Below are positions 5,464-20,536 of a stretch of 64,000 bases of DNA, in pieces. Position numbers and translations under genes: made by a program. The stretch is from assembly GCA_965661285.1 (NCBI GenBank), contig CBFIDD010000002.1:12611-76610 (forward strand), in the 5' to 3' direction. How positions within the stretch are numbered: position 1 is the first letter of the stretch; each line of letters starts with the position of its first letter. This DNA is from Poseidonia sp. GTDB lineage: Archaea > Thermoplasmatota > Poseidoniia > Poseidoniales > Poseidoniaceae. Under the pieces are notes generated by a model. That model saw only the letters and a program-made list of their open reading frames with translations, had not been told where the DNA came from and did no database searches.

Positions 5464-5550
5464 GCCGAGATCGCATAGCCTGGTAGTGCGCGCGACTGGA
5501 AATCGCGTGGGCCCGTTCCCTCGGGAGTTCAAATCTCTCTCTCGGCGCCA
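5464..5550 (+). tRNA. tRNA-Ser (anticodon GGA), CCA encoded
   Basis: Hand-folded cloverleaf. Acceptor stem is GCCGAGA/TCTCGGC and D stem is GCAT/GTGC. Anticodon stem CGCGA/TCGCG carries loop CTGGAAA. The 15-nt variable arm (class II) and T arm GGGAG-TTCAAAT-CTCTC follow, then discriminator G and CCA. Total 87 nt, no intron. Confidence 0.9.
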
Positions 5551-12002: not shown

Positions 12003-12722
12003 TTACAGCAGGCTTCGAAGGGCTTCTCGGTCAAAATGCGAAACCGCTTGTTGGTGGGCCTTTTGGGGTGAAAACCAAGCGGCCTGTGAAATCTCTTCGG
12101 TTTGAAGGGTTAAATCGCTCAGATCACCGGTCCACGTCGCACGATATGTGAACGATACGAACGAGATGCCTTCATCGTTGAAGACGCGTTGAGTGATCAC
12201 CGGTTCAATGTCGTCGAGCACGATCGTGATACCCAATTCTTCACGTGTTTCTCGCACACATCCAACCGCAGGATGTTCGTTATGGTCCATGTAGCCACCT
12301 GGCAAGGTCCAGAACCCATGGAAATGCCCCCGTTCCACCTTGCCCATCAGAACATCCCCCTCGGCGTTGCATATCATGACCTTCGAGACCAATCGGTGAA
12401 CGGAGCGGTAAATCGCATCTCGGGCAACGGGGTGAACGGCGTTATCAGCCACACACTTGTCCTTCCATGCCCATGCTTCGGGCCAGTCTATGTTCGGGTA
12501 GGCCTTCACCACAACGAAGGCGTCTTCACCGTACTGCAACACGATACGTTCGTTCTCAACATAGGCGATGTTCAAATTCTCAACTTCATCTTTGGTCGGA
12601 AACCGAAGGCGTTCCTCCGATGATGTCCGTCCTTGCACGGGTTGTTGAGGTCCCTGGCCGTTCTTGTCCACCAAGAGCACCTTTCCGTCGTGCTCAAGGT
12701 ACACGACTTCAGCTGGGTGCAT
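12003..12722 (-). CDS. NUDIX hydrolase with ~100-aa N-terminal extension
   Basis: Nudix box GFWTLPGGYMDHNEHPAVGCVRETREELGI (Gx5Ex7REUxEExGU). Convergent with and directly abutting alaS. Confidence 0.8.
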   Translation of the reverse strand: MHPAEVVYLEHDGKVLLVDKNGQGPQQPVQGRTSSEERLRFPTKDEVENLNIAYVENERIVLQYGEDAFVVVKAYPNIDWPEAWAWKDKCVADNAVHPVARDAIYRSVHRLVSKVMICNAEGDVLMGKVERGHFHGFWTLPGGYMDHNEHPAVGCVRETREELGITIVLDDIEPVITQRVFNDEGISFVSFTYRATWTGDLSDLTLQTEEISQAAWFSPQKAHQQAVSHFDREALRSLL

Positions 12723-15766: not shown

Positions 15767-15830
15767 CACTTTCACTTTCAACACCCGGGTCTGGCATAAG
15801 CATGCCGTGCTCCTTCGGGCTGAGCGTGTC

Positions 15831-16100
15831 ATGGGTCGAAGTGTGCCACCATGGCGAACGCGAGTGGAGAACGAATTGCAGCAATTGATGCCGTACCGTC
15901 GAGCCCTCTCGTCGGTTGATCGTGCTGCTTTTGATGCCCTTTTGGATGCGGTGCGTGAGCGTCGCGCTGCGGGAGGAATGCTTCCAGCCATCAACACCTG
16001 GCAGCCCACAGTTCTCAGCATGATGGTGGGTTTGATGGCTCAGGTGTCGCAGCTCACCGAACGCGTTGAAGCGCTTGAGGAACGGCGTCGCCATGATTGA
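15831..16100 (+). CDS. small helical ORF translationally coupled to the PolB2-like gene (hypothetical, 89 aa)
   Basis: Its stop (16098-16100) overlaps the polymerase ATG at 16093 (...CGCCATGATTGA). The C-terminus has an amphipathic helix QVSQLTERVEALEERRR. No recognised family. Confidence 0.4.
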   Translation: MGRSVPPWRTRVENELQQLMPYRRALSSVDRAAFDALLDAVRERRAAGGMLPAINTWQPTVLSMMVGLMAQVSQLTERVEALEERRRHD

Positions 16101-18597
16101 GGGTTGGTTGCTGGACGTTCACGAGAACGAGACACACACCGAGATGGTGGCGTGGGTTGTTGACGACCAAGGTGTTGCCCACGGGTGTGCTGTGCCTTGG
16201 ACGCCTTCGATACATGTCCACGCCTCCCATCGCTCTTTGGACCGGTTAGAGCACTGGTTGAACCAACCCGAATTGCGTCAGCGTTTTGGTATTGGCGCCA
16301 TGGTTCCAACACGTGCTCGATTGGACCTTGAGGCCGAAGGCCAGGCCGATGTTCTCGACATCACCTTGCGTTCTTACCACCACATGCGGGCCCTTGCAGA
16401 ACACATTGAAGCGCGCGGTGATTTTCATCGGTACACGCTCTACTCGGTCGATGCCCATCTCGCGCAGCGCTTCCTGAACGAACACGCCTGCATTCCGTTT
16501 CAACGGGTTCGTTGGAATCCTTCGGTGCCAACCTTGCTCGAACCGATCAGCGCGGCTGAAACCGACACCGTCGAGTTCCCGCCGCTATGTGTTGCTCGCC
16601 TCACCCTTCAATTTGCAGAGGGTGGTGGTTTGCCTGCACAAGGTGACGTTGTTGAACGCATTTGTTTGGAAACGGTTCTTGAGCCGGGTTTTTCTTCTCC
16701 CAGAACAACCCATTCCGCTCGTCTTGAACGGAGCGAATTTCCATCGTTGGCTGCCTTCCTCAATGCTTTCCAAGCGGTTTTTGATGATGTCAACCCTGAT
16801 GTCGTTGTGACCGCAGGCGGTGACCAGCGTTGGTTCCCATGGTTGGTTGAACAAGGCCACATCCATCAGGTTCCACTCGTTCTCGGGCGGACACCCGAAC
16901 ACTTGCGCCAATCGACCGGCCAGCGTACCGTTCACTCCTACGGGCAAACTCGACATCGTCATGGTTCCTTCTTTCTCAAAGGTCGACTTCACCTTGACGT
17001 AAAGAACAGTTTCATCGTCAACGAGGGTGGACTTGCGGGCTTGTTTGAACTGGCACAACACTCTCGCCAATCGGCCCAAATCATTTCCCGACTTTCTCCA
17101 GGTTCGGTCATCAGCGCCATCCAAATGCGGGTGGCCATGGATGACGGTGTCTTGGTGCCGTGGAAGAAAAACCGGCCTGAAGACACAAAGTCTGCGCTGG
17201 ACCTTCTCCATGCTGACCGAGGAGGTTTGTACCTTGATAGCCGACCAGGGGTACATTCTTCCGTGATTGAACTTGATTTTGCAAGTTTGTTCCCGAGCAT
17301 CATCGCGACACGCAACATCTCTCCTGAGACGCTGAATTGCTCTTGCTGTCAAGCGTCCGCCGCTTCCACGACGCGGGGTGTTGTCCCCTTGCATCCAGAT
17401 GAGGCTGGTCAAGAGTTTCGTGAACGTGCGATGGTCTCACGATTTGGTCACGGGCTTTTCCCGCTCGCGAACGAAAAGGCCCTCTCCGTTCCCGGCCTCA
17501 ACATGCACACATGTGGCCGCAAGCACGGCTTTCTCGGGCGTGTGGTCGCACCCATCATTGAGCGCCGTCGAGTTTTGAAGCGTCAGCGTCAGCACAAAGG
17601 CGACGCCTTTGACCTGCGACAAAACGCCCTCAAGTGGCTGCTCGTGACGTGCTTTGGATACACCGGTTACCGCAATGCGCGTTTTGGGCGTATCGAGGCA
17701 CACGAGGCGATTTGTGCATGGTCTCGAGATCTTCTACTGACCACGATTGAAGAGGCTCAAAACGACGGGTGGGATGTGCTTCATGCCATCGTGGATTGTG
17801 TTTGGCTCTCCGATACGAAAGGGCGCTCACCCGAGCAACAGCGGTTGGATGCAGAGGACTTTGGAATCCGTATTTCCCAACATGTTGGTATCCCTCTTGA
17901 GTTTGAAGCACACTACGATTTCATTGCGTTTCTCCCGAGTCGGATGCACGGTTCGGGGTCGCTTACCAAATATTGGGCCTTGGCGGGTGATGAATTCAAA
18001 GTTCGTGGCATTGAGTTGCGCCAACATTCCACTCCACGATGGGTGCGTGAACTTCAGCAAAAGGGGTTGGAACTTCTGGCAAAAGGGGAGCGCGTTGACG
18101 GACGTCCTTCCCTTCGGGCTCAACGGTCGGTGTTGGCCCACTATCGGGGCGAGCTTCAGCGATTAAATTCCGGCGAGGTTTCGCTCGTCGACCTCGTGAT
18201 CACGCGACGAACCACGCGACACTTGGCCGATTATCGCGTCAAGAACCTGACCTATGGGGCACTCCTGCGAGCCCATGAACGCGGATATGTTGTCCCGCCG
18301 GGAGGGAAAATTCGTTATGTCGTCGTGAATTCATCGTCCAGCGAACCTCTGGATCGTGTCCGTTTGGCTGAGGAACTCCCCCTTTGTCAAGCCGCAACTG
18401 CTGGATGTCCAGTCCATTATGGCGAACTCGCTGAACGCGCCGTATGGGCGCTTCTTGCGCCGTTCGGTTGGACAACAGAAACACTTCGAAGCGACGGGGT
18501 TCAACCGAGTCTCTTGATGTTCACGCGTCGCGATGAAACAGAGGGAGAACGCCGACCGTTTGACTCCTCGTTGACCGGTCAAAGCTCTGTTCGTTGA
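16093..18597 (+). CDS. family-B DNA polymerase, PolB2/Dpo2-like (proofreading motifs not detectable, motif C degenerate)
   Basis: Motif A is ELDFASLFPSII, followed by SPETLN as in archaeal PolB. The motif-B region is KWLLVTCFGYTGY (canonical KxxxNSxYG). Motif C is LHAIVDCVWLSD (canonical YGDTDS). The KVRGIELRQ region resembles the KxRGxExxRRD thumb motif. I cannot find ExoI FDIE, ExoII NxxxFD or ExoIII YxxxD by eye. Confidence 0.85.
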   Translation: MIEGWLLDVHENETHTEMVAWVVDDQGVAHGCAVPWTPSIHVHASHRSLDRLEHWLNQPELRQRFGIGAMVPTRARLDLEAEGQADVLDITLRSYHHMRALAEHIEARGDFHRYTLYSVDAHLAQRFLNEHACIPFQRVRWNPSVPTLLEPISAAETDTVEFPPLCVARLTLQFAEGGGLPAQGDVVERICLETVLEPGFSSPRTTHSARLERSEFPSLAAFLNAFQAVFDDVNPDVVVTAGGDQRWFPWLVEQGHIHQVPLVLGRTPEHLRQSTGQRTVHSYGQTRHRHGSFFLKGRLHLDVKNSFIVNEGGLAGLFELAQHSRQSAQIISRLSPGSVISAIQMRVAMDDGVLVPWKKNRPEDTKSALDLLHADRGGLYLDSRPGVHSSVIELDFASLFPSIIATRNISPETLNCSCCQASAASTTRGVVPLHPDEAGQEFRERAMVSRFGHGLFPLANEKALSVPGLNMHTCGRKHGFLGRVVAPIIERRRVLKRQRQHKGDAFDLRQNALKWLLVTCFGYTGYRNARFGRIEAHEAICAWSRDLLLTTIEEAQNDGWDVLHAIVDCVWLSDTKGRSPEQQRLDAEDFGIRISQHVGIPLEFEAHYDFIAFLPSRMHGSGSLTKYWALAGDEFKVRGIELRQHSTPRWVRELQQKGLELLAKGERVDGRPSLRAQRSVLAHYRGELQRLNSGEVSLVDLVITRRTTRHLADYRVKNLTYGALLRAHERGYVVPPGGKIRYVVVNSSSSEPLDRVRLAEELPLCQAATAGCPVHYGELAERAVWALLAPFGWTTETLRSDGVQPSLLMFTRRDETEGERRPFDSSLTGQSSVR

Positions 18598-19306
18598 GAC
18601 GAAAACGAGTTTGAGCGATGTTCTCGAAGGGGCGCCAGTGTCCTTGAAGCCCCGAACGAGGATGTCGGAGGTGCAGTGCTCTCCTTCGCCGACTTCCTGT
18701 CCACGTACCGATGAGGTGGTTTTGAGCGTGGCGGTGAAGATGTTGAAGCAAACGTGCATCGGTGTGTTGCGAGCGAGGCGATCCCGTGATGACGACCACA
18801 GCGGCGTGCTGGTGTTCGGCCAGTTGCCGTAAGAGACCAACATGTCTTCGGAACAAGGTTCTGGATTCAAGCCTCGAAATCGCATCATCGCTGTGCATGG
18901 CGAGCAAACCGTCAATCACAATGACGGGGGCACGGGTGATGGCCAGTTCATTTGGGAGGCGTTCGATTTGTCGGTCCAATTGATGCAGTGTGAATCCTCG
19001 ACTCAAGTACAAACGTGCGAGACACGCCTCAACATCTGCTCCAAGCCGTTCCAAACCTGGAATGAAACGTGAGGGGTCAATTCGGCAGGCACCGTCCACC
19101 CAGTGCACCACTTCGCCTTGTGCCAAGGCGTGAACGGCCCAATGTTCTGCAACACATCGCATGCTCTTGCCTGCCCGTCCGGGCCCACTCAAGTGGTAGA
19201 GTTGTCCTCGCACGGGCACAAGCGTGGTTGGGTCAATGCCTCTTCGGCGTTGGATGAGGTCGGTGTTCAGCCGTGATGTCGCTTGGTGGTGTTGCATACG
19301 AATCAT
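18521..19306 (-). CDS. RecA-superfamily P-loop ATPase lacking an N-terminal domain (RadB/ImuA-like)
   Basis: Walker A is LSGPGRAGKS and Walker B-like strand is PVIVIDGL. The order of elements matches RadB (P-loop, VxWVD, L..R.., VVIDS-like, VVVITG). The C-terminal tail is Arg-rich. The last 25 codons overlap the 3' end of the polymerase gene. Confidence 0.65.
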   Translation of the reverse strand: MIRMQHHQATSRLNTDLIQRRRGIDPTTLVPVRGQLYHLSGPGRAGKSMRCVAEHWAVHALAQGEVVHWVDGACRIDPSRFIPGLERLGADVEACLARLYLSRGFTLHQLDRQIERLPNELAITRAPVIVIDGLLAMHSDDAISRLESRTLFRRHVGLLRQLAEHQHAAVVVITGSPRSQHTDARLLQHLHRHAQNHLIGTWTGSRRRRALHLRHPRSGLQGHWRPFENIAQTRFRLNEQSFDRSTRSQTVGVLPLFHRDA

Positions 19307-19405
19307 TGACGGTCGTCAAACGGGGTCTTCAATACTTAGGAGGACCCCTCGGTTGAACTGAACATCCACATCAAGTTCAAACACCATCGGCGTCGATGGG
19401 CGATT

Positions 19406-20536
19406 GTGCTTGGGCAAGACGCAGGTGGTGCGGTTGGTGGTCCGAGAATCATCATTCACTGCGACTTGGATGCGTTTTTTGCAGCGGTTGAAACCCTTCA
19501 CCACGGCTTTGACCGCGATGTACCTTTGATCATCGGTTCAGATCCGAAACAGGGACGGGGTCGCGGCATCGTTTCTACCTGTAATTACGCGGCGCGCGTC
19601 TACGGAATACGTTCGGCCATGCCCGTTTCCGAGGCGTGGCGCCGGTGCCCTGCAGCGCCGTTTGGCCCGGCCATCTTCATCCGAGGAACACGTGGCCTCT
19701 ACAGCCGAGCGAGTCGAAAAGTCATGGCGGTTCTTTCGGAAATGGCGGACCTGTTTGAAAAGGCGAGCATCGATGAGGCCTATCTCGATGTGACGGAGCG
19801 AGTAAACGGGGATTGGGATGCAGCACTCGCCCTTGCAAATATTCTGCAGCAGCGTATCTTTGAAGCGGTCGAGTTGACGGCTTCTTTTGGCATCGGGCCA
19901 ACTCGTCTCGTGGCCAAGATGGCGAGTGAGGTGAACAAACCCAACGGAATCTTTCGTGTTATGCCTGACGAACTGCAGTCGTTTTTCGAGGGTCGCTCTC
20001 TCCGAGATATCCCGGGGATTGGACCAAAACGCGCAACCCAGTTGGCAGAGTGGGGCTACACAACGGCCGACGAGCTTTACGGTTTGGGTGAACTTTCCCT
20101 TGCAAGGCTCGCAGGTGAGCGATTTGCTGCTTGGTTTGTGCGAGTTGTTGATGGAGAAAGCAGTTCGGTTGTCAGTCCTCTGCGGAGTCGGAAATCCATT
20201 GGGAAAGAGCACACGTTTGAACGCGACCAAGAGGACCATCAACACGTGGTGGAGCGCCTCGAACAATTGGTATCGTTGGTCATGGAACGGGCTGCACATC
20301 TCGGTGTGTCTGGTCGGTTGGCTGAAGTCAAAATTCGCTACACGGGATTTGAAACCCATACCGCTGGCCGGAGCATACCGGTGGCGATGGACGAAACGTC
20401 GGTGTTCAAGCGGCTGGCGAACGGGTTGTTTGCCACCAGTGTTCGCCCGGATTCAACCGTGCGCCTCATCGGGTTTCGTTTGGGGCAGTTAGAGATGCCA
20501 GCATTCCGTCAGTCCACGCTGTTTGAGGAAGAATAG
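19406..20536 (+). CDS. dinB: Y-family DNA polymerase IV (DinB/Dpo4-type)
   Basis: IIHCDLDAFFAAVE, SIDEAYLDVT, IGPTRLVAKMAS and DIPGIGPK (HhH) are all present, so the catalytic acidic residues are intact. The predicted start is GTG. Confidence 0.9.
   Translation: MLGQDAGGAVGGPRIIIHCDLDAFFAAVETLHHGFDRDVPLIIGSDPKQGRGRGIVSTCNYAARVYGIRSAMPVSEAWRRCPAAPFGPAIFIRGTRGLYSRASRKVMAVLSEMADLFEKASIDEAYLDVTERVNGDWDAALALANILQQRIFEAVELTASFGIGPTRLVAKMASEVNKPNGIFRVMPDELQSFFEGRSLRDIPGIGPKRATQLAEWGYTTADELYGLGELSLARLAGERFAAWFVRVVDGESSSVVSPLRSRKSIGKEHTFERDQEDHQHVVERLEQLVSLVMERAAHLGVSGRLAEVKIRYTGFETHTAGRSIPVAMDETSVFKRLANGLFATSVRPDSTVRLIGFRLGQLEMPAFRQSTLFEEE

Follow-up and report, generated by a model that had tools for sequence, protein, structure and literature searches.

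The PolB2 translesion polymerase unit of a marine Poseidonia and its DNA polymerase IV neighbour

The 64,000-nucleotide stretch of Poseidonia sp. contig CBFIDD010000002.1 analysed here (positions 12,611 to 76,610 of the forward strand; hereafter the window, in whose numbering all coordinates are given) comes from a member of the Poseidoniales, the marine group II archaea. It carries four adjacent genes, which encode a small helical protein, a family-B DNA polymerase, a RecA-fold protein and a Y-family DNA polymerase (Table 1). With a probability that we put at about 0.88, the first three genes (15831-19306) represent a known three-component translesion polymerase, made up of PolB2, its small accessory subunit PPB2 and the inactivated RadA paralogue iRadA, and the fourth gene, dinB, is an independent neighbour that encodes DNA polymerase IV (Pol IV). 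An initial annotation of the same DNA had combined all four genes into a single mutasome-like cassette for damage tolerance; this description suits the first three, which correspond to the published PolB2 mutasome, but not DinB. The four open reading frames (ORFs) were confirmed at the positions listed in Table 1, and independent gene calls on public contigs that encode an identical small protein give the same four genes.

The association of PolB2 with members of arCOG07300 and an inactivated RadA was reported in 2013-2014, together with the proposal that they form a damage-related complex (PMC4104785). Timinskas, Timinskas and Venclovas (2025) introduced the names PPB2 and iRadA, modelled a pentamer of PolB2, iRadA and three PPB2 chains for 40 species, gave this heteropentamer the name 'PolB2 mutasome' and drew an explicit comparison with Pol V (PMC11791011). 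The same study assigns the Poseidoniales proteins EHR76802/EHR76801 and MBL6742770/MBL6742771 to its operon group 3b, with the gene order PPB2-PolB2-iRadA; the three-gene unit, its reading as a mutasome and its presence in Poseidoniales are already known. Supplementary Table S1 of that study lists, within five genes on either side of 95 group-3b loci, the families IMS (46 loci), 2-Hacid_dh_C (45), tRNA-synt_1 (42) and Lactamase_B (32), which are exactly the neighbours found in the window; its main text does not discuss the group-3b neighbours, IMS included (PMC11791011). The suggestion in the initial annotation that a module of PolB2, a RadB-like protein and DinB was undescribed does not hold, since the three-gene unit is published and its IMS neighbour is on record for nearly half of those loci. 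In Sulfolobus islandicus, the PolB2 enzyme (Dpo2; SiRe_0614/0615) is an active, damage-induced and Orc1-2-dependent polymerase that is needed for targeted mutagenesis and acts as an extender from mismatches and lesions (PMC7544198, PMC6061795, PMC8764526). The four-gene arrangement described here is real and largely ordinary, and matters little as a discovery.

Table 1. Genes and conserved non-coding elements of the PolB2-dinB region
Feature	Position	Strand	Remarks
PPB2 (small ORF)	15831-16100	+	89 aa
PolB2	16093-18597	+	834 aa
iRadA	18521-19306	-	261 aa; RecA-fold protein
iRadA-dinB spacer (divergent promoter region)	19307-19405		99 bp
DinB / DNA polymerase IV	19406-20536	+	376 aa; GTG start
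14-nt box CACTTTCACTTTCA (two tandem ACTTTC)	15767-15780	+	immediately 3' of the serA-like stop codon; -64 to -51 from the PPB2 ATG
GGGTCT	15787-15792	+	conserved in PPB2-upstream alignments; mirrored 5' of iRadA
ATAAGCAT, A-rich box	15796-15803	+	conserved in PPB2-upstream alignments; mirrored 5' of iRadA
TTCAGTTCAA	19353-19362	-	iRadA side of spacer; alignment of 50 spacers
GGGGTCC	19342-19348	-	iRadA side of spacer
TAAGTAT	19332-19338	-	iRadA side of spacer
CATCAAGTTCAAACACC	19369-19385	+	dinB side of spacer; conserved dinB box; contains TTCAA at -30

Components of the PolB2 unit

For comparison, a scan with one genome per species yielded 80 Poseidoniales loci, onto which the window proteins were mapped; PolB2 and iRadA co-occur in 78 of them. 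The small protein encoded in the window begins with MGRSVPPWR, and the N-terminal pattern MGR[ST]VPxWR is invariant across 74 loci and 25 database homologues. Because this pattern matches the published 'MGRT' arm, whose Arg3 and Arg9 define PPB2 (PMC11791011), we assign the small ORF, from its sequence, to PPB2 (arCOG07300 / DUF8156), the accessory subunit of PolB2. Its AlphaFold2 monomer model consists of an extended arm and three helices (8-23, 28-46 and 57-88), with a predicted local distance difference test (pLDDT) score of 74.8. Precomputed annotations place the family in Pfam PF26485 (DUF8156), and local scans against Pfam and NCBIfam returned nothing meaningful for this protein. In Pfam, a link between DUF8156 and the published name PPB2 is still absent. 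The end of the PPB2 frame, with its TGA at 16098-16100, overlaps the start of PolB2, with its ATG at 16093-16095, inside ATGATTGA, as the initial annotation had claimed; such proximity is the rule, as 70 of the 76 loci compared have the PPB2 stop between -20 and +4 nt from the start of PolB2.

In PolB2, the Pfam scan recognized the polymerase domain PF00136 (6e-19) alone and gave no match to an exonuclease domain. A profile search matched the protein to Thermococcus PolB at 5e-46; in this alignment, the Exo II motif of the latter, GDNFDF, corresponds to GGDQR[W/H]F, so that the catalytic Asp is gone, and Exo I and Exo III could not be aligned. Motif A (DFASLFPSI) is intact, with D395 invariant. 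Motif C reads HAIVDCV: its first Asp is gone, and H564 and D568 are invariant in 12 sequences with 49-80% identity. The archaeal B2 group is described as having just such a motif C, in which the His and the second Asp remain (PMC7544198). The initial annotation had described a polymerase with a degenerate motif C and none of the three exonuclease motifs, which was borne out; it had also allowed for an ordinary replicative PolB with intact exonuclease motifs, which the Thermococcus alignment shows to be lost. The best NCBIfam models, NF004418 and NF004416, are those of short type-B polymerases, and both matches fall below the respective cut-offs. Motifs, genomic context and the published classification of its orthologues place this enzyme, by prediction, among PolB2 (Dpo2-type) family-B polymerases.

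Conservation of the PolB2 core is extreme, with long invariant blocks in sequences that are only ~50% identical overall. The segment I331-D382 is fully invariant and ends with D375-R376, 20 residues before motif A. By its expected position, this segment is a candidate for the iRadA-binding region with its D(K/R) motif, and D375-R376 may be the counterpart of 253-DK-254 of S. islandicus PolB2. Near the C-terminus, PolB2 has a box resembling the PCNA-interacting peptide (PIP-like box), QPSLLMF, with the consensus [QK]-x-x-[ST]-L-x-x-F, in which L807 is invariant and F810 is conserved in at least 90% of sequences. The variable tail that follows this box is the part that overlaps the iRadA ORF. 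An invariant cluster of Cys and His residues (C416, C418, C419 ... H472, C474, within residues ~416-474) flanks an insertion of ~50 residues between motifs A and B. This cluster is larger than the cysteine pair found in Thermococcus PolB and may serve in metal binding or form disulfides.

The third protein carries the sequences GPGRAGKS and VIVIDGL. It matches the Pfam Rad51 model weakly (23.5 bits against a cut-off of 22), and a profile search of the Protein Data Bank (PDB) retrieved the RadA core of Pyrococcus furiosus (E=3.4e-6), with WIDTE of RadA aligned to WIDGA. The N-terminal helix-hairpin-helix (HhH) domain is missing, and the ~30 residues that precede the core are short and unconserved. 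In all 75 iRadA sequences compared, the catalytic Glu of WIDTE is replaced by Ala, or in one case by Ser (WIDGS). The P-loop Lys is likewise variable: in the 73 sequences that cover this column it is K in 49, R in 13, S in 5, A in 3, and G, D or Q in one each. The segments HW[IV]DGA, RGFT[LV]HQ and MH are invariant. These features mark the protein, in all probability, as iRadA, the inactivated RadA paralogue of PolB2 operons; it is unlikely to be a working ATPase because the catalytic Glu is always replaced and 24 of the 73 sequences have another residue in place of the P-loop Lys.

Of the description in the initial annotation, the RecA fold without HhH domain, GPGRAGKS and VIVIDGL were confirmed, and the label 'ATPase' has to be dropped in view of the Glu to Ala replacement. 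Its RadB/ImuA-like identity was rejected too: the RadB model TIGR02237 gives 26.2 bits against a cut-off of 172.4, no ImuA model was matched at E<=0.1, and the state of the active site speaks against both. Like RadB of Thermococcales, iRadA is a short RadA paralogue without the N-terminal domain, but it lacks the catalytic Glu and its genomic partner is PolB2, not PolD.

Two observations weigh against the identification of this locus as a PolB2 mutasome. The NCBIfam score of the polymerase is 398 against a curated cut-off of 692, which yields no equivalog assignment, and iRadA of the window keeps a canonical-looking GxxxxGKS P-loop that leaves room for nucleotide binding, unlike hydrolysis. 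By comparison with its relatives, this GKS appears to be under no ATPase-type constraint.

In other respects the locus agrees with the published mutasome. It has the same MGR(T/S) arm, a decayed exonuclease and a single-Asp motif C, its iRadA is a RadA core that lacks both the N-terminal domain and the catalytic Glu, a clamp-binding motif is found in only one of PolB2 and iRadA, as published, and the order PPB2-PolB2-iRadA is that of published group 3. It differs from the published system in the GKS kept by the window copy, in the divergence of dinB from iRadA in two thirds of the loci, in having no orc1/cdc6 gene close by, and in the strand of iRadA.

Gene order and the position of dinB

PPB2, PolB2 and iRadA are found together, in unchanged orientation, in all 78 loci and in at least five genomic contexts. 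In every one of these loci iRadA lies on the opposite strand and converges with PolB2, a point on which the initial annotation was silent, and it would thus be expressed from a separate transcript. The 3' ends of the two ORFs overlap in 66 of the 78 loci; the overlap is 77 bp in the window (18521-18597), and sizes of 62, 60, 26 or 17 bp are common elsewhere. In one genome, a 2.25-kb insertion with two membrane-protein genes (L042:10412-12664) parts PolB2 from iRadA, which fits the view of iRadA as a transcription unit of its own.

The product of the fourth gene contains the Pfam domains IMS (PF00817, 9e-39), IMS_C (PF11799) and IMS_HHH (PF11798), passes the cut-off of the NCBIfam Pol IV model NF002677 (275.2 bits against 256) and has the catalytic motifs DLDAFF and SIDEAYLD. 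It is predicted to be a canonical, catalytically intact Pol IV, in agreement with the apparently active Y-family polymerase of the initial annotation. Bacterial Pol IV models fit this DinB better, at 275 bits, than does the Dpo4-type model, at 153 bits. Its C-terminus, RQ[TA]TLFEEE (20507-20533), is conserved over the orthologues in a style like that of the PolB2 C-terminal box and may be a non-canonical clamp-binding motif.

The initial annotation had called for the conservation of the neighbourhood to be checked in Poseidoniales. dinB diverges from iRadA in 52 of the 78 loci, with a spacer of 87-131 nt, and the four-gene arrangement thus recurs in 52 species-level genomes, far beyond chance. 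The same 52 loci keep a whole block of ~18 kb, in which the genes for alanyl-tRNA synthetase (AlaRS), a Nudix protein, a metallo-beta-lactamase-fold protein, a membrane protein and SerA precede the three genes, and dinB, an aminoacyl-tRNA synthetase gene and an MMPL transporter gene follow them. At the remaining 26 loci dinB was not found; in 20 of them the sequence continues for at least 1.3 kb past iRadA, and there the absence of dinB beside the module is real. The loci without dinB show the three genes in no fewer than four different contexts. Neighbour-joining analysis of PolB2 recovers the loci without adjacent dinB as a monophyletic group that branches from within the dinB-adjacent clades, and because of this position the likeliest history is that of an ancestral block from which the three-gene unit departed intact, leaving dinB behind.

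The comparison of loci is a clean natural experiment, in which the selectable unit appears to consist of three genes, not four. The adjacency of dinB is inseparable from general synteny, and DinB would accordingly be a neighbour rather than a component of the polymerase. In Supplementary Table S1 of PMC11791011, an IMS neighbour is listed for 56 of 1823 PolB2 loci and for none of the other 1767. The claim that DinB is the fourth member of the cassette fails on these two counts, the 20 loci at which the three genes occur without dinB and the 1767 loci without IMS. A DinB homologue search for non-adjacent dinB genes returned matches of the DinB-adjacent type: all 120 matches listed are at least 70% identical.

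Several other genes were observed next to the unit in the clade without adjacent dinB. In 9 of its 17 sampled loci (L055, L057, L063, L065, L068, L069, L071, L074 and L077), a gene for a 660-aa photolyase-like protein (PF00875) lies directly 5' of PPB2 on the same strand, for example L057:2563-4545, and a crtI-like gene is often found farther 5'. The 14-nt box CACTTTCACTTTCA described below was not found 5' of the photolyase-like gene. In five loci, the gene transcribed divergently from iRadA encodes a membrane protein similar to YdjM (PF04307 at 28.6 bits, just short of the cut-off of 29); it lies at L055:4057-4746, with equivalents in L057, L063, L065 and L068. YdjM is LexA-regulated in E. 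coli.

A promoter box shared by PPB2 and iRadA

The most conserved intergenic element 5' of PPB2 is a 14-nt box, CACTTTCACTTTCA, which is located ~64 nt before the ATG in loci with or without dinB. A position weight matrix (PWM) built from the conserved sites upstream of PPB2 has a single strong match in the 64-kb window (22.9 bits, at the box itself). In 1.2 Mb of loci, the matrix finds 96 matches 5' of PPB2 and 37 matches 5' of iRadA, the latter on the iRadA strand at -62 to -66; a further 56 matches elsewhere fall mostly within ORFs, and there are zero matches on the dinB strand. Among the ~15 genes in each of the 80 loci, the full 14-mer is specific to the promoters of PPB2 and iRadA. The iRadA promoter has the same layout as the PPB2 promoter throughout, with the box, GGGTC(T) and the A-rich box at equal distance from the start codon. 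In the clade of the window, the iRadA copy is a diverged variant, TTCAGTTCAA (19353-19362), and for this reason the view that the window shares the box between both promoters rests on its relatives. GGGTCT and ATAAGCAT are promoter-proximal elements and candidates for a TATA box, a promoter-proximal element (PPE) in the strict sense or an initiator.

We take CACTTTCACTTTCA to be a module-specific promoter element, as its distribution suggests, and the shared promoter layout can be the means by which the convergent iRadA gene stays coordinated with PPB2-PolB2. This box might be the sole new part of the locus to repay follow-up. For abundant marine archaea, two convergent units with a shared box point to co-regulation and to a possible damage regulon, which is testable in existing diel or UV metatranscriptomes.

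Two other searches were set aside. A looser box, WTCANNTTCAA, has 10 matches in the window against 1.9 expected, but all of those beyond the two promoters are intra-ORF, and the PWM was used in its place. An exact scan of metagenome contigs with the 14-mer, aimed at further members of a regulon, returned 120 unrelated contigs from all biomes and one related fragment, and was uninformative.

The box resembles the DNA damage-responsive element (DDRE) of Sulfolobales, 5'-A(N)TTTC-3', which is bound by Orc1-2 just upstream of the TFB recognition element (BRE) and TATA box; in S. islandicus, the PolB2 (dpo2) genes are among the Orc1-2-dependent, damage-induced targets (PMC5817253, PMC6061795). The Poseidoniales box consists of two tandem A(N)TTTC and would lie just 5' of or within the core promoter region. 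The differences are that Poseidoniales belong to another phylum, Thermoplasmatota, that their box is tandem and the DDRE single, that it has no orc1/cdc6 gene as a neighbour, and that it overlaps the generic sequence TTCA(A). The likeness is one of sequence and approximate position, and may be a coincidence rather than homology.

There is about an even chance, in our judgement, that the box is an unusually conserved core promoter (the BRE/TATA region) of two co-expressed genes and not a damage operator. Its 3' half coincides in part with TTCA(A), the box found generically before genes of this genome, and if TTTCAA is a TATA-like element, the box sits at the positions of BRE and TATA. A sequence as short as A(N)TTTC carries little weight, and no orc1/cdc6 gene was found near the group-3b loci listed in Supplementary Table S1 of PMC11791011. 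Against a mere core promoter stand the specificity of the 14-mer for just two promoters among ~15 genes in 80 loci, its equal distance from the start codons of PPB2 and iRadA, and its make-up, in which the Sulfolobales element, with dpo2 among its targets, is exactly repeated twice. A bolder scheme would be that the PolB2 module is split into two convergent transcription units synchronized by a shared tandem A(N)TTTC operator, the counterpart of the Orc1-2 element, with dinB drawn in as an inserter. We consider this scheme rather improbable; if true, it would extend an Orc1/Cdc6-type DNA-damage circuit from Crenarchaeota to abundant marine Thermoplasmatota.

The generic box just mentioned was examined over the whole window. 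TTCAA occurs at -70 to -10 of 15 of the 36 window genes, against 4.1±2.0 expected, with examples at 19376-19380, in the 31048 region and in the 61400 region; one of the 15 cases is the T-loop of a tRNA-Ser (5464-5550). It looks like a generic, TATA-like promoter box of this genome. In the iRadA-dinB spacer, two copies form the inverted repeat TTGAACT/AGTTCAA (19353-59 and 19374-80). The initial annotation had pointed to a palindrome-rich spacer of 99 bp; its size and inverted repeats are as described, but a special regulatory palindrome was rejected, as the repeat is composed of two back-to-back, divergent copies of the generic box.

Proposed mechanism and alternatives

The gene identities, motif states, synteny and promoter-box conservation observed here can be joined to a mechanism in which complex formation, extender activity and damage induction are carried over from the literature. 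PPB2 and PolB2 would be produced from one tightly coupled transcript and iRadA from its own promoter on the opposite strand, and the module would be induced by damage, as in published homologues. By analogy with the same homologues, a PPB2 trimer would insert one MGR(S/T) arm between PolB2 and iRadA, and iRadA would play a structural, non-hydrolysing role, docking on the invariant PolB2 segment that ends with D375-R376, the predicted counterpart of a Rad51-oligomerisation-like segment. The sliding clamp (PCNA) would probably be reached via the PIP-like box at the PolB2 C-terminus. Once a nucleotide stands opposite the lesion, PolB2, which is devoid of proofreading, would extend the primer end, as does Sulfolobus Dpo2. 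The dinB gene would stand beside the module through the conserved gene order of ~18 kb; it shares the 99-bp divergent promoter region with iRadA, and co-expression of the two is possible.

This last point leads to the alternative that the locus is a two-polymerase damage island, in which DinB as inserter and PolB2 as extender are co-regulated via the 99-bp bidirectional promoter and form no stable complex. We regard this as possible but doubtful. The adjacency, with its near-constant spacer (87-131 nt), persists in 52 loci down to ~50% PolB2 identity, but it is confounded by the ~10 conserved housekeeping genes of the block, and the module has been relocated without dinB. Distant DinB-adjacent loci have the 14-nt box of iRadA inside the spacer, 40-55 nt from the dinB start; the box has no copy on the dinB strand, however, and the conserved dinB box is the generic TTCAA element. 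Both polymerases end in a conserved C-terminal motif of the Q-x-x-L type, and a photolyase gene often adjoins the module where dinB is not adjacent, which is in keeping with a DNA-damage theme.

A similar division of labour is seen in eukaryotic two-polymerase translesion synthesis, which combines a proofreading-less family-B extender (Pol zeta) with a Y-family inserter; here the two genes lie side by side. Sulfolobus PolB2 is a poor inserter and a good extender, and the question of a partner polymerase has been raised by the authors of that work, but Sulfolobus dpo4 is not damage-induced and the Y-family Dpo4 is dispensable for PolB2-dependent targeted mutagenesis (PMC8764526). An IMS neighbour in only 56 of 1823 PolB2 loci is another point against a general partnership. 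The Poseidoniales arrangement provides a weak genomic hint on the question left by Sulfolobus, namely whether a PolB2 extender works with a Y-family inserter.

The model of the initial annotation, a four-gene integrated mutasome like ImuA-ImuB-DnaE2 with the Y-family protein as hub or subunit and an active ATPase, is very unlikely. ImuB is a catalytically dead Y-family protein. The compositional parallel (a RecA-like protein, a Y-family polymerase and a polymerase of a replicative family) is superficial, and the four genes are indeed adjacent in 52 loci, but DinB, unlike ImuB, has intact DLDAFF and SIDEAYLD motifs and scores above the Pol IV equivalog cut-off. In addition, iRadA is without the catalytic Glu. 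DinB is missing beside the three genes in 20 Poseidoniales loci and in almost every other lineage, and the pentamer as published needs no Y-family member (PMC11791011). The parallel to imuA-imuB-dnaE2 drawn in that annotation is contradicted by the absence of an ImuA match, by the intact Y-family motifs and by the family-B affiliation of the polymerase.

The PolB2 mutasome does share with both E. coli Pol V (UmuD'2C-RecA-ATP) and bacterial ImuA-ImuB-DnaE2 the combination of an error-prone polymerase, a small oligomeric accessory protein and a RecA-family protein in damage tolerance. It differs from them in that the catalytic subunit belongs to family B, not to family Y or C, and in that the place of the RecA-family partner is taken by an inactive paralogue dedicated to this role instead of the recombinase of the cell. 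A further difference from ImuA-ImuB-DnaE2 is that the Y-family gene here would code for a working Pol IV that acts on its own rather than for a scaffold of the ImuB type.

The least credible option, in line with how PolB2 was viewed before 2020, is that the module has lost its enzymatic activity and is a relic or serves to regulate replication: the first Asp of motif C and the exonuclease site are gone and a regulatory role was considered by Makarova in 2014 (PMC4104785), but PolB2 enzymes of S. islandicus and S. solfataricus carry these substitutions too and show robust polymerase activity (PMC7544198, PMC8764526), and the Poseidoniales polymerase core is extremely conserved, with the motif A Asp and the motif C Asp and His invariant.

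Genomic setting

The genes that flank the PolB2-dinB region in the window are housekeeping genes, for RtcB, AlaRS, a Nudix protein, the metallo-beta-lactamase-fold protein and the SerA-like dehydrogenase, and also for a class-I aminoacyl-tRNA synthetase, the MMPL transporter, serine hydroxymethyltransferase (SHMT) and a topoisomerase. The G+C content is flat over the 64-kb window. The setting of the four genes is chromosomal and not that of a mobile element.

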